Positions 12,689 through 59,999 of a DNA stretch of 64,000 bases are shown in pieces. Position numbers and translations under genes: made by a program. The stretch lies in IMG/VR virus record IMGVR_UViG_3300020477_000013, positions 64,001-128,000 of that record; one strand, written 5' to 3'. Position 1 is the stretch's first letter. Each line of letters starts with the position of its first letter. Under the pieces are notes generated by a model. The model did not search any database, was not told the DNA's origin, and worked only from the letters and a program-made list of their open reading frames with translations. Origin of the DNA: a virus. Taxonomy: Duplodnaviria > Caudoviricetes.

Positions 12689-13591
12689 ATGTTCGGTATG
12701 ATGAGAAAGATATCATATAACAAAAAGTCATCTAAAAAATTAGGTTGGCGCCCTTTCTGGTTTGGGGAAGATGATTTTAGTTCCACATTAATAAAAAAGA
12801 TTAAAGAATTTCAGGAGAGCCATGATCTTAAACCAGATGGCTTGTGCGGAGATGTTACATTTCGCCGTATATATTCTGAGCAAGAGTCCTCTAAGGACGA
12901 AGATACCGGATCACAAATTATAGTCGAGGGAATTCCTATATCGATTCCGTGGGATAAAGTCGTTTCTATAGAGGATCCGGATAATCTTTCATTACCGAGA
13001 AGTTGCTATCGTCATCGAGACAGGCCTGACCCAACACAAATTGTGACGCATTTTGATGTTTGTCTTAGCGCGGCATCATGTAAGCGAGTGTTACAAAAAA
13101 GGGGCCTGTCTAGCCATTTTGTGATTGATAATGACGGTACGATATACCAGATGGTCGATACCGCATATGAGGCATGGCATGCCCCACCCTCGAATAAGAG
13201 AAGTATCGGTATCGACATAAGTAATGCATATTATGTCAAGTACAATAAAACCTATAAGTCTAGGGGGTTTGGGCTCCGCCCTGTTTTAAAAAATCTACCC
13301 TTGCATGGTACAAAGATTAAGGAGTGCCTGGGGTTTTATGATGTTCAAATAGAGGCGTACAAGGTATTACTTAACACACTTTGTGATTTTTATAAGATCC
13401 CAAAAGAGTGTCCGCTAGATGATAATGGAGATCTTCTGAGGGGCGTGTCGAAGGATGCACGGTCCGGGAAGTTTAAGGGCATTGTTTGCCATTATCATTT
13501 AACGAGAAAAAAAATTGACTGTGTTAATTTAGAGTTAAAGCAAGTGTTAGACGAAATGAAGGTCTCCGGTATGAGCAACGATGAAGCCTGA
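12689..13591 (+). CDS. Endolysin: peptidoglycan-binding domain plus N-acetylmuramoyl-L-alanine amidase (Amidase_2)
   Basis: IKEFQESHDLKPDGLCG; IVTHFD; SSHFVIDNDGTIYQ; AWHA; SIGIDI; IVCHY; KIDC. Confidence 0.88.
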   Translation: MFGMMRKISYNKKSSKKLGWRPFWFGEDDFSSTLIKKIKEFQESHDLKPDGLCGDVTFRRIYSEQESSKDEDTGSQIIVEGIPISIPWDKVVSIEDPDNLSLPRSCYRHRDRPDPTQIVTHFDVCLSAASCKRVLQKRGLSSHFVIDNDGTIYQMVDTAYEAWHAPPSNKRSIGIDISNAYYVKYNKTYKSRGFGLRPVLKNLPLHGTKIKECLGFYDVQIEAYKVLLNTLCDFYKIPKECPLDDNGDLLRGVSKDARSGKFKGIVCHYHLTRKKIDCVNLELKQVLDEMKVSGMSNDEA

Positions 13592-14291
13592 ACTAAGGGT
13601 TGAGTTATATGATGACGGCATAGGGGCTGTTGAGTATGTTTCTCATATGGGTGATGATTTAACGATCGTGAATGCAGCACGTGTGTCTTTTGGCAAGCAC
13701 AAGGAAATACTTGATCAAAAAGATGCTAAGCTGATTAGGTATTTAATCAAACATCGTCATACGTCGACGCTGGAGCATAACATTGTCACTTTTCGCTTTA
13801 CTGTACCTCTTTTCATTCGCAGTCAGCATCATCGTCATCGCACTTGGAGCTACAACGAGATCTCTAGACGGTACACGGACGTTGATATCAAATTCTATGA
13901 AACAAAAGCACTCAGGACTCAACATGCATCAAACCGTCAGGCTTCGAATCCGAATGTTTTGCAAGACCCTATTATAGACCCTGGTGGAATAAGCGGCGGG
14001 AATCATGCCAGCTACCTAATTTCATCTCATCACTCTTCTTCTTTGAGGCTATATAATAAACTACTCGACAATGGCGTCTGTAGAGAACAGGCTCGTGGCA
14101 TTTTGCCCCAAAATATGTACACACAATATTATGGTACTGTGAATTTGAATAACCTGATAAAATTTGTAGAGCTGAGATCGCATGAGGGTGCACAATGGGA
14201 GATTCAGCGTGTCGCTGCTGCATGCATACAAATAGCATCTAGCTTGTGGCCTGAAACAATTTGCGCCTACAAAGAGATTAGGGAAATTTAG
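13581..14291 (+). CDS. thyX: Flavin-dependent thymidylate synthase
   Basis: HTSTLEH; RHRTWSYNEISRRY signature; REQARGILP. Confidence 0.95.
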   Translation: MKPELRVELYDDGIGAVEYVSHMGDDLTIVNAARVSFGKHKEILDQKDAKLIRYLIKHRHTSTLEHNIVTFRFTVPLFIRSQHHRHRTWSYNEISRRYTDVDIKFYETKALRTQHASNRQASNPNVLQDPIIDPGGISGGNHASYLISSHHSSSLRLYNKLLDNGVCREQARGILPQNMYTQYYGTVNLNNLIKFVELRSHEGAQWEIQRVAAACIQIASSLWPETICAYKEIREI

Positions 14292-19231: not shown

Positions 19232-19242
19232 AGGGAAATGGT

Positions 19243-20789: not shown

Positions 20790-21604
20790 AACTACTACGT
20801 GAATACATAAGAAGTCTGCTGATTGAGACTGCGATAGGTCAGTGTTATCCGCATGTCGTTAAGATGGCCAAGGGTTCTTCTCAAGAAGAATTCTCAGACC
20901 TAGCCAGATTCAAAGTAGCTCATGGTAGAGTGACAGACAAGTATTCAGGTGAATCAGTTCTACATGCCTGGGTTGAAAAAGGCGATATGGTTTTCGATTG
21001 GCAGACACATTCCACCAAACCTGATGGTATTCCGAAAGATGTCTACTACGACATGTACGCACCAGAAATCCACAACGAATACACAGCCGAAGAGACCATG
21101 GTCAACTGTTTGAAAAGTGGCCAGGCCGGCCCATGGACTTTGAGAGAGTCTACAGGGATAATAGAAGACGGTTGGCCTGGGGTTACATGGAAAGTCCAGA
21201 ATTATGGGAACGGTATCTCCGTTGTCTTAATGATGAGTGGGCAAAAGATGGGAAGCATCATAGCTCGGGAAGTTTCGCGCTGGAAATACTGTGCCGATGA
21301 CGTAGAGAAGTTAAAGGCACAAGGGTATGATTACGAAGACCCACGCTGGCCATCATTAGGACCTAAACTTTTCGCGGTAGGTAATTCTGCAATCGACCAA
21401 GCATTCCGGGGCCAAGGCTGGGGAAAGAAGATGTATAAAGTCCTGATCGACACCATCCGCCAAGAAGCAGGCCGCCGGGGTGCATTTATCGGCGCAGATG
21501 TATGTACAGGCGGATCAACCTCGAAAGGTGCCTTAGGCGTATGGAGATCATTGGCCAGGGACTATCCATCATCCGGTAACGTAGTCTACGTGGGGCCGAA
21601 ATGA
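20786..21604 (+). CDS. Leader-tagged two-domain protein: papain/transglutaminase-like plus GNAT acetyltransferase
   Basis: MKLLREYIRSLLIE; GQCY...HAWVE...VFD (C-H-D); IDQAFRGQGWGKKMY (GNAT motif A). Confidence 0.65.
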   Translation: MKLLREYIRSLLIETAIGQCYPHVVKMAKGSSQEEFSDLARFKVAHGRVTDKYSGESVLHAWVEKGDMVFDWQTHSTKPDGIPKDVYYDMYAPEIHNEYTAEETMVNCLKSGQAGPWTLRESTGIIEDGWPGVTWKVQNYGNGISVVLMMSGQKMGSIIAREVSRWKYCADDVEKLKAQGYDYEDPRWPSLGPKLFAVGNSAIDQAFRGQGWGKKMYKVLIDTIRQEAGRRGAFIGADVCTGGSTSKGALGVWRSLARDYPSSGNVVYVGPK

Positions 21605-22134
21605 AACTACTCCGCGAGTACATAAGGTCACTACTGAGTGAGAGGATAGCATCCACTTATGGTAAGCAGAGCCAGACGCCTGGCAAGAAGAATGTGTACC
21701 GTGGAATGAAACTTACAATGCCTAGCGCATCCCTGGCATCAGCAATTCGCAAGGGTAAAATTAGTGGAGACGAGCGAGCAAGATTAATCCTCGGACAATT
21801 GCAAAATGAGTCCACAGGTGTTTCATGGTCCGAGACTTTTCATACCGCCGTTAGTTTTGCTGATACATGGAGTGCCTCGAATAGAGGTAAAACGATTCAT
21901 GTAATCCTACAGGCTACTATCGACGACGGGCAGGGCTTTGATCCAATTACTACAGGCCAAGAACCTCGGATGTTCTGGGATGAAAACGAAATAAGGATGG
22001 AGCCTGGAGCAACTATACCAATTACAGCGATATATTTATTCATCAAAGGAAAAGATAAATTCGCACCTCAAAAACTACAGTTTCATATTATTACATTGAA
22101 AGACGAAGAAAATCCACTGATGGTGAAAGCATGA
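21601..22134 (+). CDS. Leader-tagged R-S-E class ADP-ribosyltransferase
   Basis: MKLLREYIRSLLSE; VYRG ... GVSWS...AVSFA ... DENEI. Confidence 0.72.
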   Translation: MKLLREYIRSLLSERIASTYGKQSQTPGKKNVYRGMKLTMPSASLASAIRKGKISGDERARLILGQLQNESTGVSWSETFHTAVSFADTWSASNRGKTIHVILQATIDDGQGFDPITTGQEPRMFWDENEIRMEPGATIPITAIYLFIKGKDKFAPQKLQFHIITLKDEENPLMVKA

Positions 22135-22655
22135 ACCTATTACGTGAGTACATAAGGGAGTTATTAGGTGAAGGTGTAGAATTCAGGGAGCTTGATTCTC
22201 CCCTGACATATTATCGATCTAGCAATGTAAAGAGACTGGCTTTATGCGATACGTCTGTAGATGAACCTGCCAGCAGGAGTGATCTTTACTTTTCAGAATA
22301 CCAAGAAATGGAATACGTCGGCAGATCTGGTCGAAGATTAAAGAAACCCAGGAAAGGACAGTTGATACCCGGCGTTTCTGATGTCTGCGTTATTGGGTTC
22401 TTGGACTATCACCAGCAAGGCACCACCCGTGATGGTAAGCCAATGTGGTATTTAGACTATATAAAAACTCGTGGAGGCCACGGTGGGCAAAAGGTGGCTA
22501 GCCGTCTAGTAGACGAGTTTTTCAATCGATATGTAACCGATCCAGGTGTACACGTACACTTCGGAAAGATGATGCGTAAGGAGGTTGGCCACCTAAAAGA
22601 TAAGATGGCAAAGAAATACCCTGACAACATCGTCATTGGGGCAAGGAATTACTGA
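22131..22655 (+). CDS. Leader-tagged GNAT-like protein
   Basis: MNLLREYIRELLGE; VIGFLDY...WYLDYIKTRGGHGGQKVASRLV. Confidence 0.55.
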   Translation: MNLLREYIRELLGEGVEFRELDSPLTYYRSSNVKRLALCDTSVDEPASRSDLYFSEYQEMEYVGRSGRRLKKPRKGQLIPGVSDVCVIGFLDYHQQGTTRDGKPMWYLDYIKTRGGHGGQKVASRLVDEFFNRYVTDPGVHVHFGKMMRKEVGHLKDKMAKKYPDNIVIGARNY

Positions 22656-23473
22656 TGAACCTACTCCGCGAATACATAAGATCACTTCTGGTTGAAGACG
22701 CAGCTAAGCGCAAACAGTTCGCTCAACACCTTATTGATGCAGGTCACTCTGAGGCAAATTTTGACACGCCTGATGTAGTCGGCCACAGTATTGACAAGGT
22801 GAAGAAGCTCGTTAAGACTGCTCTCGATCAAGGCAAGCTTCTCAAAAAGGCTTTCGCCGAAACTGCAGACAGGGCTTTCCTCGATAGCTTAGTCACAGTT
22901 CACTGGTTCAAAACCAGAAAGACGATGGAGGCATTTTTAGAAGGATCATTTAGTCCCAAGGATGAATTATCAGCCACGGCTTACCTACCGGGTGAAATAA
23001 AAGGCGCCGGCAGGTTTGGTGATTATGGAATCCTTATCAAGGGCCATATCACTCTTTTGGCAAACGACATGGATCAACTCTACACAGGGGCTTCCAGCAC
23101 TTACAATGCAGTGTTTCCTGAAAGAAAGAAGCAGTCTGGCATTAACAAGGGTGTCGAGCAGATATATGAACCAAAAGGTTACGAAGACTATAAGATCGTT
23201 GTGCTTGACGAAGAAGATTGGAACCCCTCTATTGGTGGCTTCCGCAGCTCACAGAATAATGAGGCGCTCGTCGACAACTGGTCTCCGATGGCAATTATCG
23301 TCCCTGACTCTTCAAATCAGCCAGGTTACTGGGATGAAGATTTACAAAAGATGGAACCTGCCGGCCCTGATACAGCGGAAGCCGATATCATTTGGAAACC
23401 GCTACTAGACAAGGCCGGCCTGGATATCCCAGTTATGACAACAAGGGAGCTTGTATCGAGAGGCTGGGTATAA
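22655..23473 (+). CDS. Leader-tagged ART-like protein, paralog of segment 4 of the 14330 protein
   Basis: MNLLREYIRSLLVE; TVHWF...KDELSA...IKGHITL...NNEALVDNW. Confidence 0.7.
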   Translation: MNLLREYIRSLLVEDAAKRKQFAQHLIDAGHSEANFDTPDVVGHSIDKVKKLVKTALDQGKLLKKAFAETADRAFLDSLVTVHWFKTRKTMEAFLEGSFSPKDELSATAYLPGEIKGAGRFGDYGILIKGHITLLANDMDQLYTGASSTYNAVFPERKKQSGINKGVEQIYEPKGYEDYKIVVLDEEDWNPSIGGFRSSQNNEALVDNWSPMAIIVPDSSNQPGYWDEDLQKMEPAGPDTAEADIIWKPLLDKAGLDIPVMTTRELVSRGWV

Positions 23474-23601
23474 AAATAACAAATACAAAGTGTCATGAAG
23501 CATATGCAATGACTATTTATCTAATCAAAACGATATTACATGCATATAATGTTGATAGTGGCTTTGGATATGCTTAGGGCTATGAAAAAACGGGTGGTAA
23601 T

Positions 23602-24234
23602 ATGAGAATAGCAAAAAATCAACTTAGAAGAATCATCAAAGAACAGATGAAGTCTTGGAAAGAACGACAGGCCGAGCTGGACGCATGGGAGAAAAAGCTA
23701 GTTGCTGCACTTCCAAAAGACCCTTCGAAAATGAGTAATGCTGACCACAAAAAAGTTGCACAGCTCTTTATCGATGAATATGGCCTAGATCAAGCAGACG
23801 CTTTTTATGAAGATGACCGAGGTACATTGGCAGACTTAGGGGTTACACCATATCCTGATCTCGAAAACATCCGCATGGCCATCATGATGGCACTGGATAA
23901 AGATCATAAAAAACGAGTTAATGCTTCTCCTCATAAAAAAGAACTTAGGGCCATCGGGGGTGACAGCTACGGTGCAGTCGAGCCTCGTGAGGTAGCGTAC
24001 TTGACATACCAACCTATTCGTAAGGGTGGTAAAGTTGTAGCATTCATGGTCGAAGACAGCGAGACTCCATGGGGTACAATGCCTCTCGGCCATTCAAGCT
24101 TTGTCGTTGATGAACAATGGGCGAAACAGTCCGGGACAACGGTGGACAAGATTATAAAAGTGTTAGAGAAGGGCGGTGCAACTTTGAGAAAGCGCCGTAA
24201 GCCAGTTAAGAGAACAACTCCATACTACGACTAG
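23602..24234 (+). CDS. Leader-tagged hypothetical protein
   Basis: MRIAKNQLRRIIKEQ. Confidence 0.75.
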   Translation: MRIAKNQLRRIIKEQMKSWKERQAELDAWEKKLVAALPKDPSKMSNADHKKVAQLFIDEYGLDQADAFYEDDRGTLADLGVTPYPDLENIRMAIMMALDKDHKKRVNASPHKKELRAIGGDSYGAVEPREVAYLTYQPIRKGGKVVAFMVEDSETPWGTMPLGHSSFVVDEQWAKQSGTTVDKIIKVLEKGGATLRKRRKPVKRTTPYYD

Positions 24235-25460: not shown

Positions 25461-26211
25461 GGGCTATATGAAGCCGGCCGCTAGTTTTCATACGTTGGTA
25501 GAGTGGGATATTGTTGTAGCACAGTTACTAGAGCTTCAGCATGAGGGAATTGACACTCGAGGTGGAATAGTACAAGATCAAAGGTTGATAGATATTTTAA
25601 ATAATTTCTTCGGATATCAGCTTATCGATGAGGTGGCTAGGTGGGATTTACTAACACAAAAAAATGTGCTTGACTTTATCGAGGACTTTGTCAATCATAG
25701 GTTTTGGAGTTTTGAGAGAGAATATTCACATTATTTTCCTGATATTAACAGGCTTAAATTCGCATATTTCTATTCTAGGGGTGACATGGAACCATATGTG
25801 ATGCTTGATGATGAGTATACTATCCAGCTTTATGGTTCCACATATAATCCTAAGCTGTTATGTCACTATACCACCGAAGAGGGTGCAAAGAGACTGTCTG
25901 ATGCAATATCGAGAGGTATAGAATATGACATATCAAGCTTTACAGTGATGGATCGCCCATTTTTTAGGAAAGAGTCGAATGTGCTGGTAACGTTTATAGG
26001 GAATGTTAGAGCAGGATTCAGGAGTGACATTAAATCGATGGCACTTGATACGGGTCGCCGAGCATGCAACATGTATCGACTTGAGTACCCGGGTAGGGAC
26101 ATTAATAATATATGTTATGAACTTGACACGTGCGATTCTGATGTAAGGACTAGCTTGTGGAATGAGTACATTGCTACGCCTATTGAGATAGTAGGAATTT
26201 CGTCGAGGTAG
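25438..26211 (+). CDS. Hypothetical protein, possibly with an ART-like C-terminal half
   Basis: LCHYTT...ISSFT...WNEYIA pattern; weak. Confidence 0.55.
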   Translation: MSEKVKVRGYMKPAASFHTLVEWDIVVAQLLELQHEGIDTRGGIVQDQRLIDILNNFFGYQLIDEVARWDLLTQKNVLDFIEDFVNHRFWSFEREYSHYFPDINRLKFAYFYSRGDMEPYVMLDDEYTIQLYGSTYNPKLLCHYTTEEGAKRLSDAISRGIEYDISSFTVMDRPFFRKESNVLVTFIGNVRAGFRSDIKSMALDTGRRACNMYRLEYPGRDINNICYELDTCDSDVRTSLWNEYIATPIEIVGISSR

Positions 26212-26214
26212 TTT

Positions 26215-26242
26215 TGTACAACTTACCTTGTTGTTATAAATT
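26215..26242 (+). promoter_or_regulatory. Putative early/middle promoter (class E)
   Basis: TGTACA-N16-TAAATT upstream of the repair operon. Confidence 0.5.
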
Positions 26243-26248
26243 GAATTC

Positions 26249-26683
26249 ATGAGATGGATTCCTCCAAAGTCGCCCCACGGATTAATACAAGAAACCCTCT
26301 GGCCTGATGAGTGGAGAATCCTGGTTTCTTGCCTTTTATTAAACATGACTACACGAAGGCAGGTCGACAGGGTAATAGACCAGCTCTTTCATTTGTATCC
26401 AGGCCCTGTTAGTATGTCTATGGCAAAAGATGAAGATCTTCATGCAATTATAAAGCCCCTGGGGCTAGCAAACAAGCGTGTAAAGACCCTTAAGCGGTTT
26501 TCAACAGAGTACCTGGAGAAAGATTGGGCTTCACCTTTAGAGCTATATGGGTGTGGTAAATATGCTAACGATACGTGGAGAATTTTCTGTCAAGGGGAGT
26601 GGCGTGAGACAACACCCGATGACCATGCCCTTACTAACTATCATAACTATCTAAAATTAGTGAGAGAGCAAGAAAATGCCTGA
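26249..26683 (+). CDS. MBD4-like HhH DNA glycosylase (catalytic domain only)
   Basis: WIPPKSPHGLIQETLW..W..L..C..LN..T ... IKPLGL...R ... LYGCGKYANDTWRIFC..EW....PDDHAL..Y closely tracks the human MBD4 glycosylase domain (recalled alignment). Confidence 0.85.
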   Translation: MRWIPPKSPHGLIQETLWPDEWRILVSCLLLNMTTRRQVDRVIDQLFHLYPGPVSMSMAKDEDLHAIIKPLGLANKRVKTLKRFSTEYLEKDWASPLELYGCGKYANDTWRIFCQGEWRETTPDDHALTNYHNYLKLVREQENA

Positions 26684-27476
26684 AGGACCAGAGGTTAGAA
26701 AAATAGCACAGACTCTTGCTGGTGCCGTATCAGGTGAAACGCTTAACTCAGTAGAGGTTGTTAGCGGGAGATATTTAAAGAAAGACCCTTCCGGGATAAA
26801 CTTATTCAGGCAACAGCTTCCTAAAAAGGTTGTGGGAGCAGGATGTCACGGCAAATTTATGTATTGGATGCTTGACGATGAGTGCTCTATTTGGTCTACG
26901 CTGGGGATGACCGGCGAGTGGACGTTAGAAAAATCAAAGCATACAAGGTTAATTTTCAAGCTAGGGAATAATGAAGTATACTTTAATGATCAGAGAAATT
27001 TTGGTACGCTAAAATTTGTTCGCGGTAAATTTGCGCTAATAGAAAAACTGCAATCATTAGGCCCTGATATGTTGGCTGAGGATGTCACAGACTCAAATTT
27101 TATTTCTCAAATTCGAAAAAAACCTGGGTGGGAGATCACAAAAGCATTGATGGACCAGGCGATCGTCGCCGGCGTCGGGAATTATATTAAGTCTGATTCA
27201 TTATGGCTTTCAAAAATTAGTCCTCATAGAAAAGTATGCGACCTCAATGATGTTGAGCTTAAGTCATTGAATAATGCAATAAAGCGCATTATGAGGGAAA
27301 GCTTTAATACCGGTGGCTCAACAATAGAGACGTATAAGGATTCTACTAAAGAAGGAGAATACACAAGACGTTTTCTTGTTTATAATCAAAAAATGGATCC
27401 TGACGGAAATAAGGTCGTTAGGGAATTAACGGCAGACAATAGGACAACACATTGGTGTCCTGACATACAAATTTAG
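26676..27476 (+). CDS. Fpg/Nei family DNA glycosylase/AP lyase with zincless finger
   Basis: MPEGPEV; HGKFMY; LMDQAIVAGVGNY (H2TH); C-terminal DPDGNKV...RTTHWCP lacks the CxxC pairs. Confidence 0.9.
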   Translation: MPEGPEVRKIAQTLAGAVSGETLNSVEVVSGRYLKKDPSGINLFRQQLPKKVVGAGCHGKFMYWMLDDECSIWSTLGMTGEWTLEKSKHTRLIFKLGNNEVYFNDQRNFGTLKFVRGKFALIEKLQSLGPDMLAEDVTDSNFISQIRKKPGWEITKALMDQAIVAGVGNYIKSDSLWLSKISPHRKVCDLNDVELKSLNNAIKRIMRESFNTGGSTIETYKDSTKEGEYTRRFLVYNQKMDPDGNKVVRELTADNRTTHWCPDIQI

Positions 27477-27486
27477 GAGCTAAATT

Positions 27487-27711
27487 ATGAATGACAATGG
27501 TTTTAAATTTTCAGATGATGTTATTGCGCAGGTTGCAAAACTAATACAGGTTGCAATTCTAACTGGTACTGACATAGTTGATCACTTACGGCAGGTGAGG
27601 CTTAAGTTGACAGGAGATACGCTTTACGTAGATGATGATTATGCTTCATCATTTGAAGACAATATCCAGTCAATGCTTAAGGAGCTTGAAGAGAATGCCA
27701 CAGGCGAGTGA
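27487..27711 (+). CDS. Hypothetical protein
   Basis: ORF with RBS AGGAG. Confidence 0.75.
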   Translation: MNDNGFKFSDDVIAQVAKLIQVAILTGTDIVDHLRQVRLKLTGDTLYVDDDYASSFEDNIQSMLKELEENATGE

Positions 27712-28084
27712 CAATGATATGTTAGAAGAGATGTTTTTTCTTCGTGAAAGATTCATGTCTAGACTAACAGCAGAAAAGCCAGATCAGTATCCTACGTGGC
27801 CTATTGATTTAAGTGATAAGAGATCCCAGCAGCATGTTCGTGATATGGCCCTCCGCGGCGTCGAAGAGATGTTTGAGGCATTACAACATTTAAAAAACTG
27901 GAAGCCTCACCGTGACACAGAGGTAAGGGAATTCGATAAAGAAGAATTCATAGAGGAAATAGTAGATGCATTTAACTATTTTCTTTCTGTGTTAGTGTTA
28001 ACAGGTGTTAGTGCTGCTGATTTACACAATGCATACCTCAAGAAAGATTCTATTATCCATGATAGGCTTGAAAACGGCTACTAG
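27695..28084 (+). CDS. All-alpha dCTPase/dUTPase (T4 gp56-like)
   Basis: EEMFEAL..LKNWKPH; EEIVDAFNYF...G.SA..L...YLKK..IIHDRLENGY (gp56 ends KNQHNFERQDNGY). Confidence 0.8.
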   Translation: MPQASDNDMLEEMFFLRERFMSRLTAEKPDQYPTWPIDLSDKRSQQHVRDMALRGVEEMFEALQHLKNWKPHRDTEVREFDKEEFIEEIVDAFNYFLSVLVLTGVSAADLHNAYLKKDSIIHDRLENGY

Positions 28085-28740
28085 GCAGGAATAGGTAGGA
28101 TAAAGTTAAATACTGCTAGGTAGTGACATGCACTACCCAGCAATACTAAGATATGCCATATCGAGTGATAATATTTTTTATGGTCATTAATGTAGAAGTA
28201 TACTCCGACCGTGTAGGATATTCCACCCATCAGCATTAACATCAATCCTTCAGGGTGTACGGTCTCTATGAGGGGGCCCACCATGAATAGTCCTATCCAC
28301 CCTAGCAGCAAATAGCTGGCAAGTGAAATAGTTTCTGATACATTGAAGTAGAATATCTTCCACATTACTCCAGATATTGCTAAGAACCAGACGCATGTGA
28401 ATAAGATCATACCCCAATCTTGCTTTAGGGGTATGAGTAGTAGGGGCGAGTACCCACCTGCTATCATGATATAGATGCACGCATGATCTAGTATCCGGAA
28501 TTTTCTTTTGAGCTGTTTCTCCATAGTTCCGTGAAACAAGGCGGATGAGCTCAGGCCAAGGAATGCAGACCCCCCGTACAGTATGACTGCTAATGTTTTC
28601 CAGCCTCCCCCCAATAAGATAGAGTCGGAAATTAAGAAGTATGTCCCCACAGCTATAAAAAATGCACCGCATGCATGTGTCATGCAATTAATCCATTCTT
28701 CTTTTTGTGTCTTGTTTGAGACACAACTGTGAGATTGCAT
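28081..28740 (-). CDS. Hemolysin III / PAQR (YqfA-like) membrane protein
   Basis: EEWINCMTHA; SSALFH; DHACIYIMIAGGYSP; HSIWHILVL; about 7 TMs; RBS AAGGGG. Confidence 0.92.
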   Translation of the reverse strand: MQSHSCVSNKTQKEEWINCMTHACGAFFIAVGTYFLISDSILLGGGWKTLAVILYGGSAFLGLSSSALFHGTMEKQLKRKFRILDHACIYIMIAGGYSPLLLIPLKQDWGMILFTCVWFLAISGVMWKIFYFNVSETISLASYLLLGWIGLFMVGPLIETVHPEGLMLMLMGGISYTVGVYFYINDHKKYYHSIWHILVLLGSACHYLAVFNFILPIPA

Positions 28741-29496: not shown

Positions 29497-29541
29497 TGTA
29501 AATTCTAGACCCATGTGTTAATATAACACATGGGTTTTTTT
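29497..29541 (+). promoter_or_regulatory. Class E promoter overlapped by a perfect 12-bp hairpin and T tract
   Basis: TGTAAA(29497)-N16-TAATAT(29519); ACCCATGTGTTA-ATA-TAACACATGGGT (29509-29535) followed by a T run. Confidence 0.65.
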
Positions 29542-29554
29542 AAGCGAGGGTTTT

Positions 29555-32500
29555 TTGGGTAAGACACCGAAGAAGTTTGTTGGGATGCATGCTCATGATG
29601 GATTTTCTACGTTCGATGGTTTAGGATATCCACAAGAGCATATAGATTTTGTAAAAAGTAATGATATGGACGCGTGGTGCTTGACAAACCATGGCCATAT
29701 GAATAGTTTTTGCCATGCATATTTGCATGCTGAAAAGTTAAATAAGGCTGGCGGAAATTTTAAGTTTGTCGCAGGTTGTGAGATGTATGTACATCCCGAC
29801 TTAGATGCCTGGCGCTTAGACTATGATATTCGCGCAGCAGCAAAGAAGGGTGACAAGGAGGCGTTGTTTAGGCTTCGCGATGAGAGGGAGAAGCTTATAA
29901 CGCCTATTACGATGAAGGTTGATGCCGATGATGAGACCCTAGATATATCCACCGATGAAGCTAGTCTTACAATCGAGAATGAGGAAGAAACGAAGTCCGG
30001 AAAATTTTACGACCCCATTAAGAGACGCCATCACTTAGTTGTTTTGCCAAAAACCTCCGAAGGCTTAAGGAGGTTATTTCACCTGGTGTCTAGAGGTTAC
30101 CTGGAGGGATTCTATAGGTTTCCACGTATTGACTATAAGATGTTAAAAGAGGCCGCCCAGGGTGGCCACCTGATGGTGTCTACCGCATGTCTAGGTGGGC
30201 CCTTGGCATATGAAGTTTTTCGTCACTTACAAGAGGTTGAGTTTGATTCACTGGATCCTAAGTGGATGGATGATCCGTCACTACAACAAAAGATATTAAA
30301 TGGCGTCTCAAATTCTTATGGTCAGTTGGCCGATGCGGTGGGTAAAGAGAATGTGTATGTTGAACTACAGTTTAATCACCTTGTTGCCCAACATCTAGTC
30401 AATAGGGCTCTCATTCAATTTGCAAATAATGAGGGCATGCAAGATAAGCTTGTAGTTACATGTGATTCTCACTATGCGCATCCTGAACACTGGAAAGAAC
30501 GTGAATTGTATAAAAAGCTGGGGTGGTTAAACTATAGGGAGTTTGATCCGTCAAAACTACCTCAGTCCAAGGAAGAGCTTAAGTGTGAGCTATATCCTAA
30601 AAACGCACAGCAGGTGTGGGAATCTTACATTAATACAACTAAAGAGTATGATTTCTATGACGATGATATAATTTGTGATGCCGTAGAGCGGACATATGAC
30701 ATTGTTCATGACGAAATTGGAGACATTCATCCAGATAAGTCTATGAAACTCCCAGATTATGTTGTTCCAGCTGGTAAGAGTGATGATAGGGCCCTGTTGG
30801 ATATGTGTAAGGAGGGATTAATTGATAGAGGTTTAGCAGATAAGCCTGAATATATAGACAGGCTAAAGAAAGAACTCTCCGTCATTAGGGAAAAGAAATT
30901 TTCAAAATATTTCTTAACGATGAAAGCTATCATGGATCTTGCCAGAGGTCATATGCTGGTCGGGCCCGGCCGTGGATCAGCTGCCGGCAGTTTGGTAGCA
31001 TATGTTTTATATATCACCAATGTTGACCCGATCGAATATGGGTTACTTTTTGAGCGTTTTCTGAGCGTTCATAGGCAGGGTGCACCTGACATTGATTCCG
31101 ATGTCGGGGATCGTGATAAGCTGATTGATCTGCTTAAAGAAAATTTCGGTGATAATAATATCGTACCAATCTCAAATTATAATACATTTAAACTTAAGTC
31201 ATTAGTCAAAGATATTTCTAGGTTTTACGGAATTCCATTTGATGAAGTCAATAAGGCACTAGCTCCTGTTGAGAATGACGTTAAGAAAGCTGTCTTTAAG
31301 AAAGGGACAGACAAGAACCTCTTTACTCTCTTGTATGAAGATGCAATTAAGTACAGCAAGTCATTCCAGGATTTTATTGAGAAATATCCAGAGATTGCAG
31401 AACCTATTGAGGTGCTATTTAAGCAAAATAAAGCCCTAGGCAGGCATGCAGGAGGAGTAATAGTCTCAGAAAATGTAGCTGAGCAGATGCCCTTGATCAT
31501 GGCTCGTGGCGAAATTCAGACACCCTGGGTAGAGGGTATGCACTACAAGCACCTCGAGGAGCTAGGATGGATTAAATTTGACCTCCTCGGCCTTGAGACG
31601 TTGCGCATCATTGAGAGATGCATAGCATTGATTCTACAGCGCCACGAGGGCCATGAATCACCCTCCTACTTGAATGTCAAAGAGTGGTTTAACGATCATA
31701 TGGATCCGAAGGTGATTGATTTTGATGACCAGCAGGTTTATGAGAAAATCTACCACGCTGCAAGATGGGCAGGTATTTTCCAGTGTACCGCAAGGGGAGC
31801 ACAAAATTTCTTTAAGAAAGGAAAGCCCTGTAGCATTATTGACATTGCAACGCTTACATCAATTTACAGGCCCGGGCCTCTTACCGCCGGCGTGCATGAC
31901 ATATATTTAGGTGCAAAATCTAATCCAGATGATGTCGACTATAAACACCCTCTTATTAAGCAGGTGCTTGAGCCTACATACGGTGCCATTATTTTTCAAG
32001 AGCAAGTTATGGAGCTATGTAATGTAGTAGCCGGATTCCCTCAAGAGGACTGTGACATGGTTCGCCGCACAATCATGAAAAGATCAGCATCAAAAGCTGA
32101 TGCCATGAAAAAGCAGGCCATGGAACTTAAGCAGAGGTTTGTTGATGGTGCAGTTTCAAACGGCGTTCCTTCACATGTTGCAGATGAGCTATATGACAAG
32201 ATCATGTTTTTCTCAGGATATGGCTTCAATAAGTCTCATGCTGTTTCATATGCGATTGACTCCTATTATTGTGCATGGCTTATGACGTACTATGAAGAGG
32301 AGTGGCTGTGCGCTTATTTGGAGGCAATGTCTAATAATCCCACGAAGCGTGCAAAGGCATTTAGCGAGATAAAGAAATTAGGATATAAGGTCGTACCTAT
32401 CGATATCAATTATGCTACTAAGAGCTGGACTATTCTGGAAGGCAAAAAATTTATGCCCTCGTTTTTATCTTGCAAGGGCGTCGGCGAGGCAGCTATTGAC

Positions 32501-33154
32501 GAGATTATTGAGGAACGCCCTTACAAGCAGGTGGATGATCTGTTATGGAATGATGTGGGAAAGTGGAAGCACTCTAAATTTAATAAGAGAGCACTTCAAA
32601 ATTTAATCAAGGTTCGTGCCTTTGGCTCTATGGATCTCGTTGGTGAAGGAAAGACTTTTTCTTCTTATTCACAAATGCATGAAATTTTAATAGAGAATAA
32701 TTCGTCTATTAAAAAATGGACAAAGCGAGATCCTGATAGGGGTAGAAATGCATTTCGAGAATGCCTAATAGAGACTGCTGGTATGCAAGAATGGTCCAAG
32801 ATGACGTTAGCAACCCACAGCGTTGATATAATGGGATCTTTCAATGCAGGTATGGTAGTTTCAGATGAGCTTCAAGACAAGTTGTCGGCTCGAGGTATTA
32901 ATTCCATCGATGAAATAGAGGGTAGGGATCTCTACTGGTTCGTCGTGACTGACATGAAGACAAAACTAACAAAACATAAAAAGCCTTATTTGCTTCTAAC
33001 AGTTACAGGTATTTCAGGAGGTAATTACAGGCTTTTTTGTTGGGGATGGAATGGAAAGCTTGAAATTCCCCAATACTCCCTGTGTGTAGCTGAAGTCGAT
33101 AAAAATGACTTTGGGTGTTCAACGCAACAAAGAAAGATAAAAGTTTTGAACTGA
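29555..33154 (+). CDS. dnaE: DNA polymerase III alpha subunit (family C)
   Basis: PHP HAH..S..DG, TNHG, GCE, CDSHY; GRGSAAGSLVAY; PDIDSD; GRHAGG; KFDLLGL; YGFNKSHA. Confidence 0.96.
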   Translation: MGKTPKKFVGMHAHDGFSTFDGLGYPQEHIDFVKSNDMDAWCLTNHGHMNSFCHAYLHAEKLNKAGGNFKFVAGCEMYVHPDLDAWRLDYDIRAAAKKGDKEALFRLRDEREKLITPITMKVDADDETLDISTDEASLTIENEEETKSGKFYDPIKRRHHLVVLPKTSEGLRRLFHLVSRGYLEGFYRFPRIDYKMLKEAAQGGHLMVSTACLGGPLAYEVFRHLQEVEFDSLDPKWMDDPSLQQKILNGVSNSYGQLADAVGKENVYVELQFNHLVAQHLVNRALIQFANNEGMQDKLVVTCDSHYAHPEHWKERELYKKLGWLNYREFDPSKLPQSKEELKCELYPKNAQQVWESYINTTKEYDFYDDDIICDAVERTYDIVHDEIGDIHPDKSMKLPDYVVPAGKSDDRALLDMCKEGLIDRGLADKPEYIDRLKKELSVIREKKFSKYFLTMKAIMDLARGHMLVGPGRGSAAGSLVAYVLYITNVDPIEYGLLFERFLSVHRQGAPDIDSDVGDRDKLIDLLKENFGDNNIVPISNYNTFKLKSLVKDISRFYGIPFDEVNKALAPVENDVKKAVFKKGTDKNLFTLLYEDAIKYSKSFQDFIEKYPEIAEPIEVLFKQNKALGRHAGGVIVSENVAEQMPLIMARGEIQTPWVEGMHYKHLEELGWIKFDLLGLETLRIIERCIALILQRHEGHESPSYLNVKEWFNDHMDPKVIDFDDQQVYEKIYHAARWAGIFQCTARGAQNFFKKGKPCSIIDIATLTSIYRPGPLTAGVHDIYLGAKSNPDDVDYKHPLIKQVLEPTYGAIIFQEQVMELCNVVAGFPQEDCDMVRRTIMKRSASKADAMKKQAMELKQRFVDGAVSNGVPSHVADELYDKIMFFSGYGFNKSHAVSYAIDSYYCAWLMTYYEEEWLCAYLEAMSNNPTKRAKAFSEIKKLGYKVVPIDINYATKSWTILEGKKFMPSFLSCKGVGEAAIDEIIEERPYKQVDDLLWNDVGKWKHSKFNKRALQNLIKVRAFGSMDLVGEGKTFSSYSQMHEILIENNSSIKKWTKRDPDRGRNAFRECLIETAGMQEWSKMTLATHSVDIMGSFNAGMVVSDELQDKLSARGINSIDEIEGRDLYWFVVTDMKTKLTKHKKPYLLLTVTGISGGNYRLFCWGWNGKLEIPQYSLCVAEVDKNDFGCSTQQRKIKVLN

Positions 33155-33205: not shown

Positions 33206-33739
33206 TTGAAGAAAAAACAGCACATAATCATTTTTGACGGTCCTGATATGTGCGGAAAAACTGAGATGGCGATGGAATTATCGGCTGTTCTTGGCGTTCC
33301 GTATTTTAAAAATGAAAGTGAATGGGAATTTTTTGAAAAAGATCCAAGCTATTTTAGGAATGCGTTATCATATGGTGACACATTCTTTTATGCTTACTTA
33401 AGGCAAACAGGCGCATCTGTAATCTTAGACAGGTCATACCCATCAGAGTGGGTATATTCTAAGGTATTTTTACGAGTGACAAACGAAAAAGCGCTAAGCG
33501 AAGTAGATGCAATGGCTCATGGGATTCACACGAAGATAATAATTCCATACAGGAGTTCTTATGAAGGCTTAGAGGACCAGTTTTCATCCATAACGTCTGA
33601 CAAAATGCTAGAAATAGAGAACCTATATAGAAAATTCGCGGACTGGACTAAGTGTGATGTATTATTTCTGAATGTCGATTCAGAAGATTTAGATGATGAG
33701 ATATTTCAAATATTAAAATTCATAAACAAGGAAAATTAA
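33206..33739 (+). CDS. Thymidylate-kinase-like dNMP kinase
   Basis: IFDGPDMCGKT P-loop; ILDRSYPSEWVY. Confidence 0.85.
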   Translation: MKKKQHIIIFDGPDMCGKTEMAMELSAVLGVPYFKNESEWEFFEKDPSYFRNALSYGDTFFYAYLRQTGASVILDRSYPSEWVYSKVFLRVTNEKALSEVDAMAHGIHTKIIIPYRSSYEGLEDQFSSITSDKMLEIENLYRKFADWTKCDVLFLNVDSEDLDDEIFQILKFINKEN

Positions 33740-34773
33740 TGAAGATAGGAATTAGCTATTGGGGATTTTGCGAGAAATTTCAAGACTCGACTGTCTCAAA
33801 TACCCCTGATGGACACAGGTATGGTAGGCCAGTTTTGGTCGATGCGCTACTTGAGAGCGGTCATGAAGTTTATGCGTTGCAAGACCAGCGGGAAGATGTT
33901 AAGTACGATGGTTTAGATTATAGGTTCGCCGGTGATGGGTATCCTGACTTGGATGTCCTATTCGTAGAGTGGCGGTGGCCGACATATAAGAATAGCGGCG
34001 AAAATAAATTTGAACCCGACCTAGACAGGCAAACGCAGCTGTTGGATTACTACCATGGAAATATACCCATCGTTTCGTGGGATACCGACCTGAAGATGAC
34101 AGCTGATGATGAAGTTCGCTGGCCGCTTATGACTATTGCTGATCCATCATTTGATCCTAAGCATATGACAAGGGATAGGTTACGGTTAACATTTTGGTCT
34201 GACTTTCGTCAGATAATAGACACGACCACCGGACCGGTCGAGTTTGGGTATGTGGGTAATAACTATGAGCGTGACAAGATGTTTATGGAGTATTATTCAA
34301 AGCCGTCGCTGGTATTACGGGACAATGGTGTCCAGACCAAAGTTCACGGTAACTGGCTACAGCGCTCCCCTGAGAGGTCTAGCCCTGAAGATTTGATACG
34401 GATGCATCCTAATATTGCGTTCGGCAAGCGGGTATCATTTCATGATTCGATGCATCTCTTAAATGAATTTATCTGTACTGTCCACATAACAAAGCCAGGG
34501 TATGCAGATGTAGGGTTTGCATCACCTAGATACCTGGAAAACATAGTCGTAGGTACACCTGCGCTGGTACCATATGAGTTTAAATATAGCTCCATACTAG
34601 GTGAAGAATGGGTTGTCCATGGTCATTCCGACGTCATCGAGAAAGTTAGGTATTTAAAGAATCTTGGTTGCGATGAAAGAGATGATGTCGTCCGGCATCA
34701 GATGTACAATCTTTTAAAGCACCATAATTTTAGTGTTAATAATGTTGTTGAGTTTATTGAATCGCTGGTTTAA
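33739..34773 (+). CDS. GT-B glycosyltransferase resembling T4 DNA beta-glucosyltransferase
   Basis: MKIGISYWG; FGYVGNNYERDK; VHGNW; ASPRYLENIVVGTPALVPYEF (cf. BGT ITLRVWETMASDAVMLIDEEF, recalled). Confidence 0.7.
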   Translation: MKIGISYWGFCEKFQDSTVSNTPDGHRYGRPVLVDALLESGHEVYALQDQREDVKYDGLDYRFAGDGYPDLDVLFVEWRWPTYKNSGENKFEPDLDRQTQLLDYYHGNIPIVSWDTDLKMTADDEVRWPLMTIADPSFDPKHMTRDRLRLTFWSDFRQIIDTTTGPVEFGYVGNNYERDKMFMEYYSKPSLVLRDNGVQTKVHGNWLQRSPERSSPEDLIRMHPNIAFGKRVSFHDSMHLLNEFICTVHITKPGYADVGFASPRYLENIVVGTPALVPYEFKYSSILGEEWVVHGHSDVIEKVRYLKNLGCDERDDVVRHQMYNLLKHHNFSVNNVVEFIESLV

Positions 34774-34784
34774 GGAGAATCATT

Positions 34785-35777
34785 GTGACGCGTGTTCTTA
34801 TAACAGGGGTGGCTGGCCTCTTGGGTGCAAATTTTTCTAGGTATCTATTAGACAAGGGATATGAGGTTATAGGAATTGATAACCTGTCCGGAGGTTTCGA
34901 GGATAGTGTGGATCCTCGGGTTCGGTTCTATCCTGTAGATTTACAGGACTTGGATGTCGTAAATAACATTTTTCGTATCGAGAAACCTGACTATGTGTAT
35001 CATTTTGCCGCATATGCAGCCGAGGGATTAAGTCCATTTATCAGGAATTTTAATTACGTTAATAATGTCTTATGCTCCGTAAACGTTATTAATTCATGCA
35101 TCAAGTACGATGTGAAAAAACTAGTCTTTACATCTTCAATGGCGGTGTATGGATCTGGTTCACCACCCTTTAGGGAAGACCAACGCCCTTCCCCTGAAGA
35201 CCCATATGGTATAGCAAAATATGCTGTAGAGATGGATCTTGCATTAGCATACGAGCAGTTTGGGCTAGAATATACAATCATCCGCCCCCATAATGTGATA
35301 GGGATATACCAAAATATCTGGGATCGCTATAGAAATGTTATAGGTATCTGGATCAGAAAAGCTCTTAATGGTGAGGCCTTGACGATATTCGGGGACGGCA
35401 CTCAGGTTAGAGCATTTTCAGATATCAGGTTTTATATGGAGCCATTTGAGAAGGCTATGTATGATTATCATGGGGAATCCTTCAATATAGGGGCAGACAA
35501 GTACTATACAATTAATGATGCTTCAAAAATTGTCCAGGATGTTGCTTCTGGATTTGGCTATGACGTAGGTAGGGAATGGCTAGAGGCTAGAAATGAAGTA
35601 CATACTGCATACTGCGACCACAGTAAGGCAAAAGAGTTACTAGGGTTTGAGGACAACACAGATTTTGAGTTAATGGTGAGAACGATGTTTAAATGGGCAA
35701 TGTCGCAGCCTGATAGGGATGTCAAGTATAAGGATTATGAGATAGATAAGGGAATTTACAGTTTCTGGAAAAAGTAG
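34785..35777 (+). CDS. NAD-dependent NDP-sugar epimerase/dehydratase (extended SDR)
   Basis: TGVAGLLG; FTSSMAVYG; PYGIAK (YxxxK). Confidence 0.92.
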   Translation: MTRVLITGVAGLLGANFSRYLLDKGYEVIGIDNLSGGFEDSVDPRVRFYPVDLQDLDVVNNIFRIEKPDYVYHFAAYAAEGLSPFIRNFNYVNNVLCSVNVINSCIKYDVKKLVFTSSMAVYGSGSPPFREDQRPSPEDPYGIAKYAVEMDLALAYEQFGLEYTIIRPHNVIGIYQNIWDRYRNVIGIWIRKALNGEALTIFGDGTQVRAFSDIRFYMEPFEKAMYDYHGESFNIGADKYYTINDASKIVQDVASGFGYDVGREWLEARNEVHTAYCDHSKAKELLGFEDNTDFELMVRTMFKWAMSQPDRDVKYKDYEIDKGIYSFWKK

Positions 35778-35788
35778 GGGTATGGTTA

Positions 35789-36790
35789 ATGAACGTATAT
35801 GATAACTTTACACAATGCTATTTAGGCTTAATAGACCAGGTATATAACACACCTGATTTTATCTCTAGTCCTCGTGGGCAATTGGTGAAAGAGAAATTAG
35901 CAGTTAAGTTCCAGATTAATGATCCTAGGAGCAGAATTCCTTATACGGCTGCACGAAAATTTTCGTTGCACTATATGGTTGCTGAGTTACTTTGGTATTT
36001 GTCTGGAGAAGATTCTACGGAGTGGATATCAAATTACTCGTCTTTCTGGAGGAAGATATCCGACAACGGAAAGACTGCTAATTCTGCATATGGGGCCCGA
36101 ATTTTTAAAACACATGACAGAATTGCAGGTGGCCAATTAGTTCAGTGGGATTATGTGGTCAACGAACTCCGTAAAGACAACGACTCAAGACGAGCCGTTA
36201 TACATATACGTTCGCCATGGGATTCTACGCATGCGAAGCTTGATGTACCCTGTACACTCGCACTGCAGTTTTTTATTCGAGATAATAAGTTGCATCTTGT
36301 TGTTAATATGCGATCCTCTGATATAATACTAGGCATTGCTTACGACATTCCTGCATTTACTTTTATGCAAGAGCTTATGGCTGTGCAGCTTGGTGTGGGC
36401 TTGGGGACATATACACATATTAGTAATTCATTACACATTTACGAGAGGCATTTCAATATGGCAGAAGAAATTTTGTTGCCCGAGAACCAGACTGAGTCAT
36501 TGATGTGTCAGATATCTCGGGGCTCGATGCCCCCCCTCACGACAAACTTGCCTCCTATTCGTGAGCTATACCTATTTGAGGGTGCCATACGTAACTGTAG
36601 TACGGCTGAAGAAATTTATGAGTGCTTAGAAGAACTAGAAACTATTGATATTCATATAGATCATATAGACTACTGGCTTGATTGGGGAAAGGTTTTAGCA
36701 TCACATCGCCTTAAGAAGCTTGGGTTTCTAAATGAGTCAAATGATATGTTAAACTCTACTTCTTATGTTGGTTACCATTTACTATCTTAA
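35789..36790 (+). CDS. Thymidylate-synthase-superfamily dCMP-modifying enzyme (dCMP hydroxymethylase-like)
   Basis: Catalytic DVPC155; MRSSDIILGIAYD186 with Asp at the E. coli ThyA Asn177 / T4 gp42 Asp179 position; HISNSLHIYERH. Confidence 0.85.
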   Translation: MNVYDNFTQCYLGLIDQVYNTPDFISSPRGQLVKEKLAVKFQINDPRSRIPYTAARKFSLHYMVAELLWYLSGEDSTEWISNYSSFWRKISDNGKTANSAYGARIFKTHDRIAGGQLVQWDYVVNELRKDNDSRRAVIHIRSPWDSTHAKLDVPCTLALQFFIRDNKLHLVVNMRSSDIILGIAYDIPAFTFMQELMAVQLGVGLGTYTHISNSLHIYERHFNMAEEILLPENQTESLMCQISRGSMPPLTTNLPPIRELYLFEGAIRNCSTAEEIYECLEELETIDIHIDHIDYWLDWGKVLASHRLKKLGFLNESNDMLNSTSYVGYHLLS

Positions 36791-36805: not shown

Positions 36806-37819
36806 ATGAATAGTTGTTTAGTTACAGGAGGCTGCGGATTTATAGGCAGCGCACTGGTAAGTAAGTTAGTCGAGGCAGGATGGAAGGTTGATGTAGTCGA
36901 CGACCTATCAGGCGGAGATATTACAGCACTTGGTGACTTGCAGAAGAGGGTTATTCACGTCGACATGGTTCCTCTTTTTGAACATAGGCATGAGCCGTCC
37001 AGGCTTGACAGCGAAGTGCTGGTAATCACAGGCGATTTTTCTCATGAAAATATCTTTACAAGAATAAAAGATAAGAGATATGATTATGTTTTTCATCTAG
37101 CTGCTAGGCCAAGGGTAGCATACTCGGTAGAGGACCCTATAACAACGATGGAACACAACCTGTTTAAGACGACTGCACTTTTTCATGCATGCGTAAAGTC
37201 AGTTAAGAGGGTCATTTTTTCAAGTTCATCTTCTGTATTTGGCAGGGTAGAAGAATTCCCTACCCCCGAAGAGTACCCCAAGAACCCCTGTTCACCATAC
37301 GCATTACAGAAGTATTCATGTGAGCAATTTGCATCTCTTTTTGTTGAGCTATATGGAATTGATATAGTCGGGCTGAGGTATTTTAATGTATACGGTCCTG
37401 GCCAGCTAGGTGACTCTCCGTATTCGACTGTTGTCTCTGCGTGGTGTTATGCGATCCAGCAAGATGCTGAACTAAGGCTCGATGGTGATGGTACACAGTC
37501 TAGGGACTTTACATATATCGATGATGTTGTTTCCGCAAACATGCTCGCGGCAACATCAACCAATGAGATTGCGGGCCACATGTTTAACATAGGAAAAGGA
37601 AAGTACCATTCTCTTAACGAGATCCTAGGGTTATTTAAAGACAGATACGGTGACCTTCCACTTAGGCATGCACCAACGCGCGCTGGCGATGTGCACAAAA
37701 CCCATGCAGATGTTAGCAATGCCGGGTCATTATTGGGTTATAATCCTCAAACTAGCATGGAGGATGGCTTGAATAAGACATTTGCCTGGTGGGAATCTTT
37801 AAGTGAGGTGGATGATTAA
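36806..37819 (+). CDS. NAD-dependent NDP-sugar 4-epimerase (extended SDR)
   Basis: TGGCGFIG; FSSSSSVFG; SPYALQK; LRYFNVYGP; RDFTYIDD. Confidence 0.92.
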   Translation: MNSCLVTGGCGFIGSALVSKLVEAGWKVDVVDDLSGGDITALGDLQKRVIHVDMVPLFEHRHEPSRLDSEVLVITGDFSHENIFTRIKDKRYDYVFHLAARPRVAYSVEDPITTMEHNLFKTTALFHACVKSVKRVIFSSSSSVFGRVEEFPTPEEYPKNPCSPYALQKYSCEQFASLFVELYGIDIVGLRYFNVYGPGQLGDSPYSTVVSAWCYAIQQDAELRLDGDGTQSRDFTYIDDVVSANMLAATSTNEIAGHMFNIGKGKYHSLNEILGLFKDRYGDLPLRHAPTRAGDVHKTHADVSNAGSLLGYNPQTSMEDGLNKTFAWWESLSEVDD

Positions 37820-59962: not shown

Positions 59963-59999
59963 TGTAAACCTGCTTGTTTTATGATATAATTCTTATATC
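59963..59999 (+). promoter_or_regulatory. Class E promoter with an overlapping 7-bp palindrome
   Basis: TGTAAA-N16-TATAAT; GATATAA-TTC-TTATATC at 59983-59999. Confidence 0.6.

Follow-up and report, generated by a model that had tools for sequence, protein, structure and literature searches.

In E. coli, the T:G mispairs that arise by deamination of 5-methylcytosine (5mC) are repaired by the Vsr-Dcm very-short-patch system, in which Vsr is a sequence-specific endonuclease. In archaea, MIG (Mth.TDG) is a T:G glycosylase of the HhH-GPD class found alongside a cytosine-methylation system; its partner is a sequence-specific methyltransferase and not a substitution made in the nucleotide pool. The cost of deamination to phages in which every cytosine is 5mC or 5-hydroxymethylcytosine (5hmC) is rarely asked about, and the products, T or 5hmU opposite G, are mispairs that uracil-DNA glycosylase (UNG) does not remove.

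The mammalian glycosylase MBD4 is the closest described relative of the protein considered here. The pocket of human MBD4 is formed by residues 447–449 and 560–562 together with L466, G471, and Y540; the Q449A substitution inactivates the enzyme; the C5 group makes no contact with the protein, and the kobs for 5hmU:G is 1.10/min, versus 0.62/min for T:G (PMC3479182). Replacing Arg468 by Leu or Gln leaves the human enzyme with almost no activity (PMC12073362). An Arg or Lys "finger" at 468 combined with Gly471 is needed by the human enzyme (PMC12073362 for R468) and is not universal in the MBD4 family. Plant MBD4L (Arabidopsis AT3G07930) has the catalytic domain without the methyl-CpG-binding domain (PMC6728418). 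Among phages, all of the cytosines of Xp12 are 5mC, made by a synthase that produces 5mdCMP, and PaMx74 is likewise an all-5mC phage (bioRxiv 2024.12.05.627091). The AXL1 protein that we assign below to the MBD4 type has been described in print only as an ENDO3c protein with no canonical site (PMC9206674). Our literature search found no paper describing a phage MBD4, with an earlier mention in subscription journals possible; some homologues already bear the name MBD4 in automatic JGI annotation.

Here we analyze a gene of this type in an uncultured ocean jumbo phage. The source record is a 201.6-kb virus contig that is 73% complete and carries T4-like head, tail-sheath, and terminase genes (identified by eye) together with a DnaE polymerase; the window is a 64,000-nucleotide stretch of this contig, and coordinates refer to it unless a record is named. 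What is new here is the repeated loss of the gene and the GC contrast across 139 relatives.

Results

The phage protein belongs to the MBD4 glycosylase-domain family

The MBD4-type ORF opens with an ATG and closes with a TGA (Table 1). An earlier note on this DNA had proposed that the 144-aa product follows the catalytic domain of human MBD4, and this proposal was borne out: all of the motifs that it quoted are present, and the top phmmer matches in the PDB are 15 human and mouse MBD4 glycosylase-domain sequences (E 1e-37 to 2e-36), with an alignment that is free of gaps over phage residues 1–135. The next matches are MIG (1KEA, E 0.014, 25% identity) and Endonuclease III (E 0.43), and the NCBIfam Nth profile scored just 31.9 bits, below its cut-off of 211.7. 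The AlphaFold model (pLDDT 96) matches the mammalian MBD4/MED1 structures (PDB 4E9E, 4E9G, 4EVV, 6VJW, 1NGN) with TM scores of 0.89–0.95, an rmsd of 1.0–1.5 Å, and ~42% identity, as compared with TM scores of 0.63 for MIG and 0.52–0.65 for MutY and Nth. By sequence and fold, the ORF is a member of the MBD4 glycosylase-domain family and not of the MIG family or of the MutY, Nth, or AlkA families, the three groups that the note had named as the alternative.

Proteins of the MutY, Nth, and MIG type have ~210–350 residues in two domains with an Fe-S motif (MIG has ~220 residues), and Nth uses a lysine nucleophile. The phage protein has none of these traits: it ends at residue 144, it contains no Cys cluster and no 4Fe-4S motif, and, as in mammalian MBD4, a tyrosine (Tyr105) occupies the position of the HhH lyase lysine, which is the mark of a monofunctional glycosylase. 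The methyl-CpG-binding domain and linker of mammalian MBD4 are absent; the frame of 144 residues is immediately preceded by a stop codon and a promoter-like element. Judged by this frame, the protein is not a full-length metazoan-type MBD4. In lacking that domain it resembles plant MBD4L and the algal and protist homologues, and it has Gln at the position of human residue 473, as do most long homologues. The plant, algal, and protist proteins carry long N-terminal extensions and mostly have Arg/Lys468 with Gly471, whereas the phage protein is a bare domain.

Contigs from other marine samples are identical to the window over 25996–26355 and 26428–26685, which includes the junction with the next gene, and the identical 144-aa protein occurs in six assemblies, in one case on a 288-kb contig. 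Between the gene and its close relatives, synonymous differences are present at about half of the conserved residues, as expected for a real gene under purifying selection.

Table 1. Features discussed in the text, in window coordinates
Feature	Position	Strand	Support or remark
Canonical ThyX	13581..14291	+	PF02511, E 3e-47
Promoter-like element, TGTACA ... TATAAATT	26214..26242	+	Pattern upstream of relatives' MBD4 genes
Stand-alone MBD4-family HhH-GPD glycosylase, 144 aa	26249..26683	+	phmmer, AlphaFold model, residue alignment
Fpg/Nei-family glycosylase/AP-lyase	26676..27476	+	Pfam; best PDB matches 3A45/3A46/3VK7, E 2e-44
Conserved 74-aa protein	27487..27711	+	Marker of the MBD4 gene slot
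All-alpha NTP pyrophosphatase (dUTPase_2-like), candidate dCTPase/dUTPase	27632..28084	+	PF08761, E 1.8e-4, below cut-off; phrog_12184, phrog_173
DnaE-type DNA polymerase, between repair pair and modification genes	29555..33154	+	Pfam DNA_pol3_alpha
dNMP kinase-like protein	33206..33739	+	phrog_761, E 2e-12
GT-B glycosyltransferase resembling T4 beta-glucosyltransferase	33739..34773	+	PF13524; Atlas clusters with PF09198, feature score 0.97, TM 0.77
NAD-dependent sugar epimerase/dehydratase	34785..35777	+	PF01370, E 3e-48
ThyA homologue with dCMP-hydroxymethylase signature	35789..36790	+	Best PDB match MilA CMP hydroxymethylase, E 3e-46
Second NAD-dependent sugar epimerase	36806..37819	+	PF01370, E 5e-51

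The catalytic residues are kept and the finger is remodelled

Phage residues Q14, Y105, and D125 correspond to human Q449, Y540, and D560, and their equivalents are invariant in all 93 family carriers; human L466 and L506 are also conserved in the phage protein. Three pocket or finger positions differ from the mammalian enzyme: M33 occupies the position of the Arg468 finger, R36 that of Gly471, and A127 that of Lys562, so the pairing of a basic finger with Gly471 is missing. The earlier note had not mentioned these replacements. Among 120 close homologues, position 468 is Leu, Gln, or Met in every case, Gly471 is replaced by Arg in 117, and Lys562 is replaced by Ala in all 120; the wider jumbo-phage family also has Cys at 468.

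A nonbasic residue at 468 combined with a basic residue at 471 was found in 86 of 97 phage sequences. The long homologues show the reverse arrangement in 109 of 143 cases and lack a basic 468 in the other 34; six of them, including a Phaeocystis-type cluster, have the phage arrangement, and the Q468 and R471 pair was seen in haptophyte-type proteins. Ala562 is present in 7 of the 143 long homologues, which are mostly of eukaryotic type. Because conservation at 468 and 471 is reciprocal between the two groups, we infer that the move of the basic residue from 468 to 471 is compensating, and a changed specificity is possible. Since Arg468 is replaced, the biochemistry of human MBD4 is not transferable as it stands.

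The gene is coupled to Nei within a replication block

The MBD4-type gene sits in a replication block with the conserved order RecA, exonuclease, DnaB, NrdA, ClpP, ThyX, MBD4, Nei, 74-aa protein, NTP pyrophosphatase, DnaE, and modification genes, and it lies 6.5 kb upstream of the predicted glycosylated-5hmC genes. The Nei ORF overlaps it by 8 nt, and the best PDB matches of the Nei protein are structures that we take to be mimivirus Nei1. Of the first 165 loci retrieved, of which 162 surround an MBD4 gene, 113 include an Fpg/Nei gene, and the Nei-type enzyme is likely to process the abasic site left by the MBD4-type glycosylase. The true start of the NTP pyrophosphatase gene is probably 27695, as in a shorter gene call.

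The promoter-like element ends 6 nt 5' of the MBD4 ATG, and the transcript is therefore probably leaderless. The pattern, which was picked by eye from the same sequences on which it was counted, precedes 41 of the 93 MBD4 genes of the family (1.1 on average and at most 4 after shuffling) and 17 of 59 dnaE genes, and 0–4 of each of the other core genes. These counts suggest that the element acts as a promoter of the same class as the dnaE element. The conserved element upstream of the MBD4 gene was not among the sites listed by a stock sigma-70 scan, and a T4 late promoter was rejected as its pattern is present upstream in only 7 of 92 relatives. A family-wide form of the motif, TGTA(A/C)A, 14–18 nt, TAnn(A/T)(A/T), has 22 matches in the genome, often a few bases before an ATG; further copies in the window lie at about 29497–29524 and about 59963–59990.

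Other features of the surroundings vary among relatives. A Haemolysin-III/PAQR-family membrane protein gene (28081–28740, minus strand) is optional. A DUF1599 gene (nucleotide modification associated domain 1) separates MBD4 from Nei in L093, L097, L099–L102, L151, L158, and L159, and in one subgroup (by eye) a type II topoisomerase pair and a DNA ligase-like gene do so (L020:10410-14843). Divergent MBD4 subgroups lie 17–46 kb downstream of dnaE (L229, L230, L306–L313, and L001), and in L313 and L001 the distant gene is again near a Nei gene. Elsewhere, long gene runs at 18419–24234 of the window and about 146500–161000 of genome C1 share common N-terminal leaders (MKLLREYIR, MKITKRQLRRII), with ~30 copies genome-wide.

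The phage is predicted to modify its cytosines

The ThyA homologue has Asp at the positions of E. coli residues 143, 169, and 177, a combination that, under published residue rules for ThyA homologues, predicts a dCMP hydroxymethylase and not a methylase or hydroxylase (PMC13326640). The T4-type signature for 5hmC (N177D, an acidic residue at 143, and retention of Asp169) is thus present. The canonical ThyX is predicted to supply dTMP, which would free the ThyA homologue for dCMP. Candidates for a dCTPase, a dNMP kinase, and a DNA glycosyltransferase are also present, as weak or fold-level matches only. The phage probably replaces cytosine with 5hmC, and the synthase residues and neighbouring genes predict that the 5hmC is glycosylated; palindrome avoidance and the CpG ratio (0.78) were uninformative. 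No UDG, C5 methyltransferase, or Vsr gene was found in the 73% complete record, and no UDG-family gene was found in 66 family records; Vsr-Dcm is a functional analogy.

Relatives differ in their modification genes. In L005, L018, L023, L025, L030, and L035, a UDP-galactopyranose mutase gene lies between the synthase and the glycosyltransferase, which suggests that different sugars may be placed on 5hmC. In other relatives, a short synthase is accompanied by DUF6378 and dUTPase genes, and there is no glycosyltransferase nearby.

The gene is accessory and has been lost repeatedly

A ThyA homologue is present in 27 of the 46 long records that bear MBD4, and each homologue whose motif was readable has Asp177 (the short synthases of G001, G002, and G055 were left out of this reading). 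Of the 19 without one, 12 carry a ThyX-like gene that is long and divergent and is typically accompanied by genes for a dUTPase-NT5C fusion, nucleoside deoxyribosyltransferase, epimerase, and kinase, and 7 are fragments, most of which end near the MBD4 gene. A large branch of the family lacks a ThyA-type synthase and has a module (L020:15928-20263, L014, L057, L059, L103, L104, and L204) in which a dUTPase_2-NT5C fusion and a second, divergent ThyX of 310–341 aa are joined by an epimerase, a kinase, and a nucleoside 2-deoxyribosyltransferase. In the main subtype, this ThyX has Cys in place of the usual ThyX Ser; it is often beside a canonical ThyX, and four records carry both the module and a short synthase. 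The module is a candidate pyrimidine-modification pathway of a new kind.

Of the 139 relatives, 93 carry the MBD4-type gene, 42 do not, and 4 hold remnants with deletions or stops; the gene was lost repeatedly, and ~20 presence/absence changes map onto the DnaE tree, a number similar to that obtained with shuffled labels. Two near-complete or complete genomes, G079 (complete, 293 kb, terminal repeats) and G051 (96% complete, 289 kb), have a D-type synthase and no MBD4 gene. Because these genomes keep the synthase without MBD4, and because remnants exist, we conclude that the gene is accessory and dispensable. In L314:1498-2074, L315, and L231:1107-1653, a decayed MBD4 gene (57–65 aa, with an internal deletion joining both ends) lies beside a truncated Nei gene, and by these remains the pair was lost jointly; further MBD4 remnants are present in G093 and G147.

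The earlier note had called the enzyme a dedicated partner of the hypermodification cluster. This is too strong: the gene belongs to the replication block, where it is coupled to Nei, and stands outside the modification cluster; it is missing from G079, G051, and all-5mC PaMx74; and it is present in G011, a 100% complete genome without a ThyA-type synthase, and in carriers with the divergent ThyX module. The co-occurrence that the note expected does hold to the extent that carriers occur with cytosine-modifying synthases, including that of Xp12, but the association is not strict.

The MBD4-type gene recurs at the head of a 5mC-synthase operon

The family comprises 131 close clusters in metagenomes and 91 IMG/VR matches. 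In an exhaustive profile search, the best matches were mostly long proteins; of ten sampled, five come from named eukaryotes and none from a named prokaryote. In 50,697 cultured-phage records, MBD4-type genes were found only in eight Bradleyvirinae phages (the Xp12 group) and the cyanophage S-TIM54; the remaining match is a MIG-like gene (APSV1) located two genes from a DNA methyltransferase. In Xp12 the gene heads an operon and is followed directly by the genes for HAD/pyrophosphatase, synthase, dCMP deaminase, and DHFR; in PaMx74, Bosa, Elanor, Xoo-sp2, Mallos, and A1432, the same operon lacks it. The Bradleyvirinae proteins (Xp12 QNN97216 and AXL1 gp65) are 41% identical to the phage protein, keep the catalytic Gln, Tyr, and Asp, and have Leu at 468. 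As in the jumbo phages, the gene is beside a dCMP-type synthase and optional among relatives. Unlike the jumbo phages, Xp12 and AXL1 are unrelated 64-kb siphophages with 5mC, have no Nei, and have Trp at 471.

A pattern-limited scan of GTDB genomes with the family profile found nothing, which does not prove absence from bacteria, and all GTDB matches to the Xp12 protein in such a scan were ordinary Endonuclease III genes. PHROGs contains no family for the 144-aa protein. Domain trees (169 rows and 53 rows) did not settle the order of phage and eukaryotic proteins, and we therefore name no donor.

Carriers are richer in GC than gene-less sisters

If the enzyme repairs deaminated cytosines, its loss should shift synonymous sites toward T and A. 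From a tree of core genes in the 139 relatives, we took 30 pairs whose paths do not overlap and compared their GC at shared synonymous codons. In some lineages the gene lies at the distant site 17–46 kb from dnaE, which fragments may miss, and L263, L300, L287, L294, L303, L217, L226, and L301 were dropped from the final negatives for this reason. Carriers were GC-richer than their MBD4-less sisters in 25 of 30 pairs (sign p = 0.0003, median +0.075), a test limited by near-saturated synonymous sites, many fragmentary negatives, unidentified hosts, and a FastTree topology. The contrast was seen in 15 of 16 pairs with a D-type (dCMP-type) synthase in both members, in 20 of 21 in which the gene slot was fully covered, in 9 of 10 with long negative records, and in 15 of 16 at a tree distance of ≤0.3; it was seen in 15 of 18 pairs with Nei in both members and in 10 of 10 without Nei. 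In pairs with the ThyX module (4 of 7, a small sample), the effect was not seen. None of 15 control neighbour genes, including Nei (8 of 14), had a significant link to GC, several of them with few pairs. The low-GC, MBD4-less L275, L276, L215, and L266 are nested within high-GC carrier clades.

When changes were polarized with an outgroup, 1399 C>T/G>A changes fell on MBD4-less branches versus 757 on carrier branches, and the number was higher in 15 of 16 pairs; the outgroups, some of them reused, were MBD4-positive, which favours the polarity of C>T upon loss. GC-neutral changes differed 1.11-fold. C>A changes were raised too (1.47-fold), and their excess was not significantly different from that of C>T (p = 0.07). 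The effect was similar in all contexts (CpA 1.89, CpC 1.49, CpG 1.50, CpT 1.61), though this measure is indirect and limited by codon structure. The apparent lack of a CpG preference, which sets this signal apart from mammalian MBD4, is as expected if all cytosines are replaced.

In Bradleyvirinae, GC3 is 0.948–0.966 in three carriers and 0.805–0.962 in six non-carriers. The difference has the same direction as in the jumbo phages but comes from few points, and PaMx74 is an exception (MBD4-less, GC3 0.96). One MBD4-less jumbo-phage relative, L436, has extreme synonymous AT richness (GC3 0.13).

Discussion

The GC contrast supports an anti-C-to-T role for the MBD4-type gene; it is a correlation, and GC-rich lineages might simply keep the gene. 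We consider it probable that the protein is an active, monofunctional, and optional anti-mutator in a phage with 5-substituted cytosines, and the gene most likely mends decayed modified cytosines. The phage would make 5hmdCMP and, as residues and neighbours predict, probably glycosylate the 5hmC, and deamination would then yield 5hmU:G pairs (or T:G pairs where the phage, like Xp12, has 5mC). The MBD4-Nei pair would be transcribed from its own promoter of the dnaE class. The glycosylase would flip the G-mispaired pyrimidine, with Q14 and Y105 reading the base and D125 cutting, as their identity with the human residues suggests, and R36 probably stands in for the missing Arg468. Nei or host AP enzymes, together with a polymerase, would restore the modified cytosine. 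Two observations count against this reading: Leu or Gln at 468, both found in this family, leaves human MBD4 nearly inactive (PMC12073362), and the gene is dispensable. Repair of modified cytosine, as the earlier note had envisaged, thus gains from the C>T/G>A excess in gene-less lineages and from the synthase and T4-BGT-like genes; the exclusive tie to the cluster is not supported.

A glycosylase acting generally on U:G/T:G mismatches, one that lowers C>T change irrespective of cytosine modification and is linked to the modification genes through family-wide carriage, would fit several of the same observations. Almost every member of the family has either a D-type synthase or a ThyX-like module, which leaves within-family co-occurrence unable to tell the two readings apart; no UDG was found in 66 family records, and G011 carries the gene without a ThyA-type synthase. 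We nevertheless regard such a function as unlikely, given that host UNG already removes U:G, that the gene is limited among the 50,697 cultured-phage records to a 5mC-synthase operon and one cyanophage, and that the GC effect follows the D-type synthase and not the ThyX module, small as that sample is. The base-reading Q449 and Y540 equivalents and the backbone geometry are unchanged, which makes it quite improbable that the near-fixed changes at 468, 471, and 562 confer another substrate altogether, such as sugar-bearing 5hmU:G, an oxidised 5-substituted cytosine, or bases of host DNA. Residues 471 and 560–562 do line the pocket (PMC3479182), and the enzyme is coupled to Nei; on the other side, Ala562 and the Q468 and R471 pair also occur in long homologues, and a role on host DNA would not predict a shift in the GC content of the phage genome.

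The gene might instead be a passenger nearly without effect, kept by GC-rich lineages owing to host or habitat. Its patchy distribution, with changes on the DnaE tree as frequent as under shuffled labels, its decayed remnants, and the unidentified hosts would all agree with this; yet the catalytic residues are invariant and the promoter-like element is conserved, no other accessory gene follows GC, Nei included, the low-GC negatives lie inside high-GC carrier clades, and the contrast persists in close pairs. We therefore rate reverse causation as highly unlikely. Returning to repair of deaminated modified cytosine, a more specific version is tentative, and we rather doubt it in full: phages with fully modified cytosines would have an MBD4 subfamily of their own, in which the swapped finger (468 to 471) and a pocket opened by Ala562 allow modified cytosines that have been deaminated, and that possibly bear a sugar, to be excised whatever the sequence context. 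Gaining or losing the gene would then set the genome to a new GC equilibrium, and eukaryotic MBD4 may have an origin in common with these phage enzymes.

The analysis provides a named candidate enzyme and a genome-wide signature of its action over many independent losses. The cultured phages Xp12, AXL1, and Donnerlittchen, which have natural gene-less relatives, are direct test systems. If our interpretation is true, a 144-aa, context-independent T:G/5hmU:G glycosylase might be useful as a reagent, and the family would be a clear case of a single accessory repair gene that shifts genome GC content. MBD4, regarded as a eukaryotic CpG-repair enzyme, is extended by these findings to phages, which encode it themselves.
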